Source of the DNA: a phage
Strand: one strand, 5' to 3'
Assembly: GCA_012338575.1 (NCBI GenBank)
Contig: GCA_012338575.1_3616.1
DNA length: 64,000 nt
Shown: positions 54,874-58,680 of the stretch, in pieces
How the letters are laid out: every line of letters begins with the position of its first letter
Position numbering within the stretch: position 1 is the first letter of the stretch
Notes under the pieces: generated by a model
Database searches by the model: none
What the model was told of the DNA's origin: nothing
The model's input: the letters and a program-made list of their open reading frames with translations, nothing else
Made by a program: the position numbers and the translations under genes

Positions 54874-54961
54874 GGTGAGTTAATTCCGTAGGGGTAGCGG
54901 GGCAGACTGTAAATCTGTTATCATTGCGATTCGGGTGGTTCGACTCCATCACTCACCACCA
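54874..54961 (+). tRNA. tRNA-Tyr (anticodon GTA), long variable arm
   Basis: Acceptor GGTGAGT/ACTCACC, anticodon loop CTGTAAA, T-loop GGTTCGACTCC, CCA encoded; 85 nt plus CCA. Confidence 0.8.
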
Positions 54962-55075: not shown

Positions 55076-55166
55076 AGAGGGTAGGGAGCAATGGTGCTCA
55101 AGCGGTCTTGAAAACCGTCCCGTTGAGGATGACTCGATGATGGTTCGATTCCATTATCCTCTGCCA
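55076..55166 (+). tRNA. tRNA-Ser (anticodon TGA), long variable arm
   Basis: Acceptor AGAGGGT/ATCCTCT, anticodon loop CTTGAAA, T-arm GATGG-TTCGATT-CCATT, CCA encoded. Confidence 0.75.
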
Positions 55167-55264: not shown

Positions 55265-55361
55265 GCTAGGTAAGCCCTTTGGCAAGGGCGAGGATTTTTA
55301 ATCCTGAAAATAGACGAGGTAGTCGTTGAATACATAGGTGGTTCGATTCCATCACCTAGCA
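55265..55361 (+). other. aberrant tRNA-like element (canonical acceptor, D- and T-arms; anticodon region replaced/expanded)
   Basis: Acceptor GCTAGGT/ACCTAGC, D-arm GCCC-TTTGGCAA-GGGC, T-arm GGTGG-TTCGATT-CCATC, but middle is AGGATT-TTT-AATCCT hairpin plus about 30 extra nt; no encoded CCA. Confidence 0.4.
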
Positions 55362-55368
55362 CCTTTTT

Positions 55369-56428: not shown

Positions 56429-56712
56429 GAGTTGCTACACTGTTTATTGCGTGCTTGTTATTATGTGGGTGTGCAACCAGTGTTGAGAAAGAATACAAGA
56501 TTGACCCTCCAGATGTAGGAAGGTTGATTGTTAAACCCCCGGAAGGTGCCATGAAACCACCTGCTAAAGCTATACCTTTAAAGAAAGGTGCGCCAGATGC
56601 GGTGAATTCTGGCATTATGAGGGATAATAATCTGTCTTGTAGCAATGATAGAGCTAAATTGATCATTTTGCAAGACTATATTAGAACACTGTTTCCAAAG
56701 GAGAGAGGTTAA
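56425..56712 (+). CDS. o-spanin (Rz1-like outer-membrane lipoprotein)
   Basis: Signal peptide MRVATLFIACLLLCGC with lipobox Cys; Pro-rich mature part; ATGA overlap with i-spanin. Confidence 0.55.
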   Translation: MRVATLFIACLLLCGCATSVEKEYKIDPPDVGRLIVKPPEGAMKPPAKAIPLKKGAPDAVNSGIMRDNNLSCSNDRAKLIILQDYIRTLFPKERG

Positions 56713-57137
56713 TGTCTAAGATTTACGGACCGTGTTCTGAAAAGCAGAAGATGATCCTCGAAAACGATGCAGATATTTTGGTAATCGGCGGTGCCGCAGG
56801 GTCTGGCAAGTCGTTCCTTTTGCAGTTGATGCCGCTTAAAATTATTGATGACCCCCACAGCTCTGTGGTTATGTTCCGAAGAACAACTCCACAGTTGGAG
56901 GGTGAGGGTGGACTATGGCCTAAAGCAGTAGCTATTTATAGTGATCTGCCTGAAAACATTAAGCCAAAGTTCAGAGAGAAGGATCATAAGTTCATTTTTC
57001 CACGGTTTGATCCTAACACTGGTAAGTGGGATAGAAGCAAAAAGGGAGCTGTTGTAAAATACTGCCACATGGAGTATGTACAAGATAAGCTTAACCATCA
57101 AGGGCTTGAGTACACCATGGTTTGCTTCGATGAGGGT
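56712..57137 (+). CDS. terminase large subunit, exon 1 (ATPase Walker A/B)
   Basis: Walker A GGAAGSGKS, Walker B MVCFDEG; reading frame hits stop at 57138-57140 inside intron. Confidence 0.75.
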
Positions 57138-57456
57138 TAATTTGTAGCTCTCGTAAAACCTCCCTAATTGCGGGGAAATCTTTATTATTGACACCACCAA
57201 CCTGTTATGGTAACATGATAGAGGCTTCGAAGAGAGATCGAAGGTATGGTAACAGTGTGTTAATTTAGATAATCCGCAGCGAAGCATCCGAGGGGATGAA
57301 CGTTCAACGACTAGTCGAAAGACGTAGAATCAAGCGATTCGAAACGGGAGGGTAAGCGGTTGTTGTCGCTTATAAGATATAGTCTGGTCTGCATGGAGAC
57401 ATGCAGCTGCCTGAAAATGGCGGGGCAAGACTAGCGACCTTGCCCGAACATAAACG
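57138..57456 (+). mobile_element. group I intron (ORF-less, td-like) interrupting terminase large subunit gene
   Basis: 319 nt without ORF; begins TAATTTG after exon T, ends ...GAACATAAACG; contains AGTCTGGTCTGCATGGAGACATGCAGCTG, AACGACTA, CGAAACG strings recalled from T4 td intron; splicing 57137/57457 is in frame. Confidence 0.75.
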
Positions 57457-58578
57457 ACACAATTCGAATGGGAGCAGATAGACTACCTGATGTCTCGTCT
57501 GCGATCTCAGTCAAAGTATCCATCAAGGATGGTTATCAGCTGTAACCCCGATTCAGAACACATGCTTGCCAAACTGGTTAGATGGTGGTTGGACGATGAA
57601 GGGTATCCAGATCCGGAGAAATGCGGTAAGAAAAGATATTTTATCCGACGCGACGGTGAATTTATTTGGGGAGACTCTAAGGAAGAGTTGATAGAGAAAT
57701 ACACCACGGTTAACGGACTGGGTGTAGAGATCAAGCCAAGACCGTTGTCATTCTCGTTCATAGGCGCAACAATATTCGATAATCCTGTCTGTTTGAGAGA
57801 CAACCCAGAATACCTTGCTTTCCTTGAAGGCCTGCCAGAACTTGAAAAAGCCCAGCTTCTTCATGGCAACTGGTTTGCAAAGCCTGAGGGTGCAAACTAT
57901 TTTCAAAGATCTTTCCTTCGTGATGCCGATAGAGTACCCCTTGGATCAGTATCTTGCAGGGCATGGGATAAGGCAGGAACCGAGAGAACTTCCGGTAATA
58001 AATTTCCTGACTTTACCGCCAGTGTTAAGGTAAGTAAAGATAGCGACGGCTTTTATTACCTGTCCGGTGATTATTGTCCTGAGAACGTGGATGACGGGAG
58101 GTATTCCACAGGTCTGGAAGGTAAGTTCTGTAAAAAGGCTGGTGAACGAGATGTGATCATCAGGAAACAGGCGCAGTTTGATGGTGATGATTGTATAATC
58201 GTATTCTCTGTGGACCCCGGTCAGGCAGGTAAGAGTGAGTTCTTAACATCCTCCAGATCCTTGCTTGCCGAAGGGTTTAGGGTTGAAGAAGACCCAATGC
58301 CTTCCAACAAATCTAAACTGACAAGGTTCTCACCTTTTGCCAATCTTGCCCAACAAGGAATGGTTAGGATTGTAAAATCCAGTTTCCATCCTGATACTCT
58401 GGAAGCATTTCTGACTGAACTTGAAAAATTCAACGGGGAAAGATCAACATTTAACAGGAAAGACGACTGGGCCGACTGTGTAGCTTCTGCGATTAATTTC
58501 CTGGAGAAAGAGGAGGTAGCACTTCCTTGTGTGATTCCATCAATCTCATCACCTTCTATGTTCAAGCGTTTTATCTAA
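57457..58578 (+). CDS. terminase large subunit, exon 2 (nuclease domain)
   Basis: Frame open from 57457 (TQFEWEQIDYLMSRL...); 373 aa C-terminal part; followed by terminator. Confidence 0.7.
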   Translation, partial: TQFEWEQIDYLMSRLRSQSKYPSRMVISCNPDSEHMLAKLVRWWLDDEGYPDPEKCGKKRYFIRRDGEFIWGDSKEELIEKYTTVNGLGVEIKPRPLSFSFIGATIFDNPVCLRDNPEYLAFLEGLPELEKAQLLHGNWFAKPEGANYFQRSFLRDADRVPLGSVSCRAWDKAGTERTSGNKFPDFTASVKVSKDSDGFYYLSGDYCPENVDDGRYSTGLEGKFCKKAGERDVIIRKQAQFDGDDCIIVFSVDPGQAGKSEFLTSSRSLLAEGFRVEEDPMPSNKSKLTRFSPFANLAQQGMVRIVKSSFHPDTLEAFLTELEKFNGERSTFNRKDDWADCVASAINFLEKEEVALPCVIPSISSPSMFKRFI

Positions 58579-58628
58579 GTGTTGCCAATCTTAATTAGAT
58601 GTGGTAGAATAGAGTAATCGGAGATACT

Positions 58629-58656
58629 AGCCCTCTAACACGAGGGCTATTTTGTT
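58629..58656 (+). terminator. rho-independent terminator
   Basis: AGCCCTC-taacac-GAGGGCT followed by ATTTTGTT. Confidence 0.6.
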
Positions 58657-58680
58657 ATACTGTTTTGAGGGGTAAAGCTT

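Follow-up and report, generated by a model that had tools for sequence, protein, structure and literature searches.

A T4 td-like group I intron that splits a Vequintavirus large terminase gene

Group I introns are known from the large terminase (TerL) genes of phages. For rV5, Kropinski et al. 2013 (Virol J 10:76, PMC3606486) described three gene segments and one intron with a homing endonuclease in a section headed 'Introns in terminase', crediting D. Shub with help in defining the intron location, and RefSeq NC_011041 gives the rV5 gene (gp065, 'ORF64ABC') as a 3-piece join of 2846 nt, which is 1548 + 319 + 979. In the BASEL collection, whose authors used comparative genomics for intron boundaries, the gene of phage JohannBauhin (MZ501083) is a 2-piece join of 1867 nt (1548 + 319), the layout that we describe below. 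Lactobacillus phage LL-H (Mikkonen and Alatossava 1995) and Certrevirus CB7, a member like our phage of the subfamily Vequintavirinae, likewise have group I introns within their large terminase genes, each differing from ours by the presence of a homing endonuclease gene; splicing of the CB7 TerL intron was shown by RT-PCR (PMC7344957). Two introns in other genes are also close to the one considered here. The T4 td intron (IA2) differs from it in having P2, a short P5, and the I-TevI gene (GIY-YIG) in P6. The phiKZ intron (PHIKZ072/downstream RNA polymerase gene) resembles it in being ORF-less and without P2, and differs in host and in its short P5.

We analysed a 64,000-nt stretch of phage DNA (contig GCA_012338575.1_3616.1), called the window here. 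The phage is a Vequintavirus (an rV5-like coliphage), and its TerL locus is 98% identical to those of Mangalyan, naswa, and rV5. Its TerL gene is split between Gly142 and Thr143 by 319 nt that are almost certainly a self-splicing group I intron of the T4 td-like type (subgroup IA). The features of the locus are as follows; slashes in sequences mark junctions.

56712-57137, + strand: TerL exon 1, codons 1-142 (ORF list; colinear with the intron-less TerL of ime and bov10K2)
57138-57456, + strand: group I intron, 319 nt, ORF-less, td-like, subgroup IA type (RF00028; missing from intron-less alleles)
57457-58578, + strand: TerL exon 2, codons 143-515 and stop, encoding the remaining ATPase and the RNaseH-like nuclease domain
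57773/57774, + strand: empty site of TerL intron 2, ...GCA ACA AU/A UUC..., IGAT/IFDNP (BLAST mapping, sequence)

The exact CDS join for the window is 56712..57137,57457..58578. Intron 1 of rV5 TerL lies in the same gene at the same insertion point (GGT/.../ACACAA), is also 319 nt long, and differs by 5 substitutions in 319 nt; the two are the same element. rV5 also has a second intron, 979 nt with an HNH gene, at the position corresponding to 57773/57774, which is unoccupied in the window. The intron is thus already known, having been published for rV5 and annotated in public genomes, and is real but ordinary.

Exon 1 encodes Walker A (GAAGSGKS) and Walker B (MVCFDE), followed by Gly142. The corresponding ORF (56712-57140) specifies 142 aa with the C-terminus ...MVCFDEG and then TAA, the opening triplet of the intron, which is in frame with exon 1. 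An earlier note on this DNA had placed an in-frame stop three codons past Walker B; the stop is there, but it is the first intron triplet and follows Asp-Glu after a single codon, Gly142. The intron begins with TAATTTG directly behind exon T57137, as that note had reported, and ends with ...GAACATAAACG. The last base of exon 1, U57137, is the 5' splice-site U, and the last base of the intron, G57456, is the terminal guanosine (omega G), which adjoins exon 2 as set by the intron-less alleles. Where the earlier note had the protein resume about 320 nt on with no ORF between, the gap measures exactly 319 nt; between the two terminase ORFs there is no + strand ORF of at least 30 aa, and stops occur in all six frames. 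The second ORF (57490-58578, 362 aa) shares its frame with the codons from 57457 on, and codons 143-153 (TQFEWEQIDYL, 57457-57489) lie 5' of its first ATG (57490). Joining 57137 to 57457 is in frame (...FDEG/TQFEWEQIDY), again as proposed, and gives a product of 515 aa.

Natural alleles that lack the intron allowed us to fix both junctions. The ime and bov10K2 TerL alleles are without precisely positions 57138-57456 of the window: these intron-less genomes read ...GATGAGGGC/ACGCAGTTC..., and the window reads ...GATGAGGGT, then the 319 nt, then ACACAATTC.... The boundaries that had been inferred from the letters alone are therefore exact to the nucleotide. When the spliced N-terminal half was used as a tblastn query, bov10K2 and ime each matched as one unbroken 861-nt piece with 100% identity. 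The spliced TerL is identical to the uninterrupted ime TerL at 515/515 residues, which settles the comparison with intact large subunits that the earlier note had suggested, and is one residue off bov10K2. Pfam Terminase_6N matches aa 25-294 of the spliced protein, across the junction (E 6e-20, 72 bits versus a threshold of 22), and Terminase_6C matches aa 394-489 (E 3e-6, 27.9 bits versus 22.6). A PDB sequence search with the spliced TerL gave no match at E up to 0.01, so that the evidence for Walker B is the motif together with the Terminase_6N match.

At the junction, the intron-less allele reads GGC/ACGCAG and the intron-plus allele GGT/ACACAA. The differences nearest the junction, at -1, +3, and +6, are all synonymous and fall inside a 7-nt exon stretch, and beyond these the closest exon differences lie 36 nt to the 5' side and 27-69 nt to the 3' side. 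The U at -1, which is needed for the P1 wobble described below, is present in all six intron-plus loci that we fetched, with C at this position in both intron-less ones.

An alternative account of the two ORFs is a terminase split at the protein level, in which the RNA is never spliced and polypeptides of 142 aa and about 362 aa (from ATG 57490) assemble after translation. The Aeh1 NrdA protein, whose gene is interrupted by mobE, reportedly consists of two such assembling polypeptides and would be the model. The two mechanical ORFs themselves fit this account, several GenBank records list two separate terminase CDSs, and the CB7 paper, in which some HNH-associated insertions are non-spliced (PMC7344957), also counts for it. 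However, 11 conserved in-frame codons (TQFEWEQIDYL), identical to those of the intron-less allele, would be lost, and the GGGAG that precedes ATG 57490 lies 16 nt 5' of it, a poor Shine-Dalgarno spacing. The gap is, moreover, filled by a complete, conserved, and covarying ribozyme core, documented in the following paragraphs, and we regard a split terminase as very improbable.

To identify the 319-nt element, we scanned the entire window against Rfam 15. The group I model RF00028 (Intron_gpI) matched 57128-57406 with 83.6 bits (gathering cut-off 50; E 8.9e-20) over model positions 1-253 of 253, the sole non-tRNA match at the gathering threshold, so the search proposed in the earlier note returns the full model. 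The minimum-free-energy (MFE) fold of 57128-57465 has -113 kcal/mol, with a z of -5.1 against dinucleotide shuffles, and 0/100 shuffles fold as well. The helices, all on the + strand, are listed here with their source.

57130-57139 / 57145-57154, + strand: P1 (cmscan alignment, MFE fold)
57143-57145 (UGU) / 57457-57459 (exon-2 ACA), + strand: P10, 3 bp, putative (read by eye)
57159-57164 (CCUCCC) / 57346-57351 (GGGAGG), + strand: P3 (cmscan, MFE fold)
57168-57174 / 57273-57279, + strand: P4 (cmscan, MFE fold)
57178-57181 / 57267-57270, + strand: P5 (cmscan, MFE fold)
57187-57194 / 57257-57264, + strand: P5a (MFE fold)
57202-57221, + strand: P5b hairpin with GUAA loop (MFE fold)
57225-57243, + strand: P5c hairpin (MFE fold)
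57280-57302, + strand: P6/P6a (cmscan, MFE fold)
57309-57313 (GACUA) / 57380-57384 (UAGUC), + strand: P7, a pseudoknot with P3 (hand-placed from the model's conserved strings)
57314-57323, + strand: P7.1, GUC-GAAA-GAC
57327-57340, + strand: P7.2, GAAUC-AAGC-GAUUC
57352-57373, + strand: P8 hairpin (MFE fold)
57389-57406, + strand: P9 with GAGA loop
57409-57421, + strand: P9.1
57423-57445, + strand: P9.2, followed by the 3' tail GAACAUAAACG

P1 comprises 10 bp and pairs exon AUGAGGGU (57130-57137) plus intron UA with the internal guide sequence 57145-57154; its U57137.G57147 wobble, present in both the cmscan alignment and the MFE fold, marks the 5' splice site. P2 is absent: cmscan deletes it, and only GUAAAA separates P1 from P3. 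P5 encloses a branched extension of ~78 nt, where cmscan puts a 59-nt insertion in the P5 loop. P6 proper has 2 bp (C57280-G57302 and G57281-C57301) and is extended by the P6a hairpin CAUCC-GAGG-GGAUG (57285-57298). The conserved J6/7 and J8/7 strings align to RF00028, and from established group I knowledge we take the region of the G57309-C57384 pair to be the guanosine-binding site. Extra hairpins P7.1 and P7.2 between P7 and P3' are typical of subgroup IA (td-type) introns. The earlier note had named the lack of a foldable P1-P9 or P7 as part of what would speak against its reading; P1 and P3-P9 fold, and a putative P7 G-binding region could be placed. The points against a self-splicing intron are the absence of P2, the 3-bp P10, and the 2-bp P6 proper. 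P2 is a peripheral element and no requirement for group I membership.

To ask if these helices are maintained by compensatory change, we aligned the 3' modules, from P7 to the terminal G, of the window intron, phiKZ, td, the 4HA13 DNA polymerase intron, the VSe102 NrdD intron, and TerL intron 2. A first MAFFT alignment was discarded, its intron-2 row being truncated. The structure was drawn from the window's own sequence, and five in-register helices (P7, P7.1, P7.2, P9, and P9.2) were scored; P8 and P9.1, out of register in the second alignment, were excluded from the pair count and folded as anchored segments. Standard pairs occupied 96.3% of cells compared to 29-40% when the 3' partners were slid by 1-3 columns, and both sides had changed in 11 of 27 pairs, values that 0/500 shuffles reached. 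All five P7 pairs are invariant across the six related introns. Pairs changed on both sides number 2/3 in P7.1, 3/5 in P7.2, 3/7 in P9, and 3/7 in P9.2. P8 and P9.1 form hairpins at the same anchored place in 6/6 introns, with unrelated sequences. The group I intron called in the earlier note is thus borne out by the RF00028 covariance model, by helix covariation, and by intron-less alleles that fix both junctions.

Among Vequintavirus copies of the intron, the substitutions fall in loops or exchange G.U with G-C or A-U, including in the P5 extension, and none occur in P3, P4, P6a, P7, P7.1, P7.2, or P9 of the sister copies. The lone pairing exception is a C-U mismatch in the peripheral P5b of Mangalyan. 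These changes bear on the possibility that the element is a decayed relic, self-splicing inefficiently and dependent on low-level splicing or on a factor from host or phage. Such decay would fit the lack of P2, the short P10, and the missing homing endonuclease gene, and the absence of an ORF could be a trace of decay that set in once mobility was lost. However, the core helices and the conserved junction strings are all intact, the substitutions among copies keep pairing save for the one Mangalyan mismatch, the Rfam score equals those of the other functional phage introns scanned, and the gene is essential and the intron-bearing phages are viable laboratory isolates. We consider a relic extremely improbable.

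The P5 extension also contains two features of other kinds. At 57188-57216 (+) there is a sigma-70-like sequence, TTGACA-17-TAACAT with an upstream TG (10/12 matches); as many such sites occur in the region as are expected from shuffled sequence, and this one has probably arisen by chance. The Mangalyan record annotates a 26-aa 'hypothetical protein' with an RBS in the extension (positions 1989-2069 of locus L001, about 57188-57268 of the window). This 26-aa ORF, like the exons listed as separate terminase genes, is an annotation artefact of the unrecognised intron.

How the intron would act can be outlined from the computed fold and the known chemistry of this intron class. The TerL gene would be transcribed as one pre-mRNA, and the intron RNA folds into P1, P3-P9, P7.1/P7.2, and P9.1/P9.2. 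In the first step, exogenous guanosine bound in P7 would attack on the 3' side of U57137, the base singled out by its wobble pair with G57147. In the second, the 3'-OH of exon 1 would attack after G57456, with the short P10 (ACA/UGU) aligning the exons, and the ligated mRNA would then yield the 515-aa TerL made by the uninterrupted allele. On unspliced RNA, translation would halt at the intron-opening TAA and leave a 142-aa fragment. Splicing without the help of proteins is assumed from family membership. Literature searches returned no experimental splicing data (RT-PCR, RNA-seq) for this specific intron. TerL is essential and locus spans in about 19/45 sampled isolates fit the intron, and splicing must therefore occur in vivo. 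Since Walker A and B lie on one ORF and the remaining ATPase together with the nuclease on the other, it can soundly be inferred that virion assembly in this phage would depend on splicing.

The td strings that the earlier note had listed hold against a T4-type td intron: AGTCTGGTCTGCATGGAGACATGCAGCTG corresponds to td AGTCTGATCTGCATGGTGACATGCAGCTG, AACGACTA and CGAAACG are identical, and GAACATAAACG corresponds to GAACATAATG. BLAST against the td intron gave 72% identity over the 3' 130 nt (E 7e-18). In a sensitive BLAST with the intron alone as query, T4-type td introns matched at 82% over the last 79 nt and nrdB introns at 82% over 50 nt. The phiKZ intron matched at 72% over 187 nt (71% over 203 nt on pairwise re-alignment, plus the P3-P4 5' strand) and is the closest full-length relative outside the Vequintaviruses among the matches listed. 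Further related introns interrupt DNA polymerase genes (4HA13, Pseudomonas PT07) and the NrdD gene of Felixounaviruses, and another occurs in an Alteromonas phage. P7, P7.1/P7.2, P9, P9.1, P9.2, and long identical strings are common to the td and window introns, and both start with UAAUU and end with GAACAUAA(A)(C/U)G; unlike td, the window intron is without P2, has the branched P5 extension of ~78 nt, and carries no ORF. Of the subgroup IA features, P7.1/P7.2 are present and covary, whereas the P2 of td is absent. Because of P7.1/P7.2 and the td homology, we place the window intron in the T4 td-like lineage, subgroup IA, where its IA2 assignment would follow from homology and not from a subgroup-specific model.

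To determine how the intron is distributed, we measured locus spans in 45 Vequintavirus isolates, an evenly spaced sample of the ranking obtained with the HdK5 locus as query, all of them ~98%-identical phages. The following states were found.

1582 nt: no intron, about 22/45 isolates (ime, Murica, FV3, FFH2)
1901 nt: short intron 1 only, the window's state (LL12, slur16, magaca, JohannBauhin)
2465 nt: intron 1 with the endonuclease VII gene (JES2013, DrSchubert)
1850 nt: short intron 2 only (C7, VB-EcoM-WM)
2561 nt: HNH intron 2 only (PDX, YP-6)
2169 nt: both introns short (RudolfGeigy)
2880 nt: short intron 1 and HNH intron 2 (rV5)
3444 nt: both introns long (HdK5)

With two TerL introns in three states each, 8 of the 9 possible combinations occur in Vequintaviruses. 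Intron 1, short or long, fits the locus spans in the about 19/45 isolates mentioned above. An assembly artefact was ruled out, the intron being found in dozens of independently sequenced genomes. The intron is absent from about half of the sampled sisters and is therefore dispensable. Polymorphic presence and absence at a fixed site is a characteristic of mobile introns, and an element that sister phages can do without has the appearance of a selfish mobile one; one would not expect a regulator built into the gene to be missing from sister phages. About 18 GenBank records within MG065644-MG065677, named as 'Campylobacter phage' C2, C7, A13b, A140, A142, A147, D1, and others, have TerL loci with ~98% identity to those of rV5-like coliphages and share the intron polymorphism, and their 'Campylobacter jejuni' label looks odd.

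In JES2013 and HdK5, intron 1 has a long form of 883 nt whose P8 holds an endonuclease VII-type gene of 196 aa (Pfam PF02945, Endonuclease_7, E 2e-21). By BLAST and sequence, ~582 nt replace window positions 57354-57371 within a different, longer P8 stem.

1155-1736 of the JES2013 locus (L003) and 1157-1747 of the HdK5 locus (L004): endonuclease VII-type cassette, equivalent to window 57354-57371

An ORF together with its own P8 stem stands in place of the short P8 hairpin, and the two forms are therefore related by a cassette swap rather than by a simple deletion. The catalytic domain of the long-form enzyme is 41% identical over 83 aa to the product of an endonuclease VII gene in the Pseudomonas PT07 DNA polymerase intron, which lies upstream of P7.2 in what we read by eye as the P6 loop. 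Intron 2, for which the window site is empty, measures 979 nt in rV5 and HdK5 with an HNH + HTH gene (HNH_3 Pfam match) and 268 nt, ORF-less, in RudolfGeigy (RF00028, 95.6 bits); the codon at this site is ACA in the window versus ACC in intron-2-plus alleles. At the gathering threshold, Rfam gave no match for the endonuclease-containing intron 1 (JES2013, HdK5), for intron 2 of rV5, or for the TH18 gap described below; a miss of the endonuclease-containing forms is expected from their large ORF insertions and is no evidence against them.

More distant TerL genes have insertions elsewhere. The Aeromonas 4L372D TerL intron (L015, 1238-1537; 300 nt, td-like, RF00028 85 bits) was considered as an occupant of the same site and rejected, since it lies about ten codons upstream, at HQG/L. 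Escherichia phage TH18 has a 245-nt gap in TerL at HQG/L (L016, 1205-1449) with group I-like P1 and P4 strings. The HQG/L site adds to the two Vequintavirus sites, and there are therefore at least three insertion sites in the ATPase domain of this TerL family. Mobile introns usually target conserved catalytic-site codons, and the pattern seen here is of that kind.

Outside the intron, the window contains other RNA features. Just 3' of TerL, a stem-loop and T-run form a terminator at 58628-58659 (+), where rV5 has an annotated Rho-independent terminator. An unusually long tRNA-like gene of 97-99 nt occupies 55265-55363 (+), with 35.5 bits in the Rfam tRNA model, an anticodon loop UUU (Lys), and an extra arm of ~26 nt; ARAGORN reports it as 'tRNA-???' with a 4-base anticodon, and in sister genomes it is entered as 'tRNA-OTHER' or as a 99-nt tRNA-Lys, a type that does not typically have a long variable arm. 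At 54874-54958 and 55076-55166 (+), the tRNA finders disagree: a type-II tRNA-Tyr(GUA) scored 39 bits in Rfam and was missed by ARAGORN, and a tRNA-Ser(UGA) was found by ARAGORN, with only a sub-threshold match to the tRNA-Sec model in Rfam.

What the work adds is nucleotide-exact boundaries via the natural intron-less allele, a helix map, the replacement of P8 by an endonuclease VII gene in the long form, and an overview of how two introns, each in three states, are distributed among sister phages. It involves no new principle, as group I introns of this kind are textbook: they sit at conserved catalytic-site codons in essential phage genes, may or may not carry homing endonuclease genes, and are patchily distributed. 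On the practical side, many rV5-like GenBank records still give the gene as two 'terminase large subunit' CDSs, sometimes with a spurious small ORF within the intron, and several of these records belong to phages that serve, or have been suggested, as biocontrol agents. As to the biology of the element, no homing endonuclease gene was found in the window's copy, whose 319 nt hold no ORF, and from the polymorphism this copy would be the short form of a mobile element. It is conceivable, though we think it unlikely, that the 319-nt form is still mobile and spreads in trans during co-infection with the endonuclease VII-type enzyme being supplied by the 883-nt form, and with GGC/ACGCAG versus GGT/ACACAA being changes that confer resistance to cleavage; a more speculative variant is that splicing efficiency might gate the supply of TerL late in infection. 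If mobility in trans does occur, the Vequintaviruses would be a natural system for the persistence of endonuclease-free introns.
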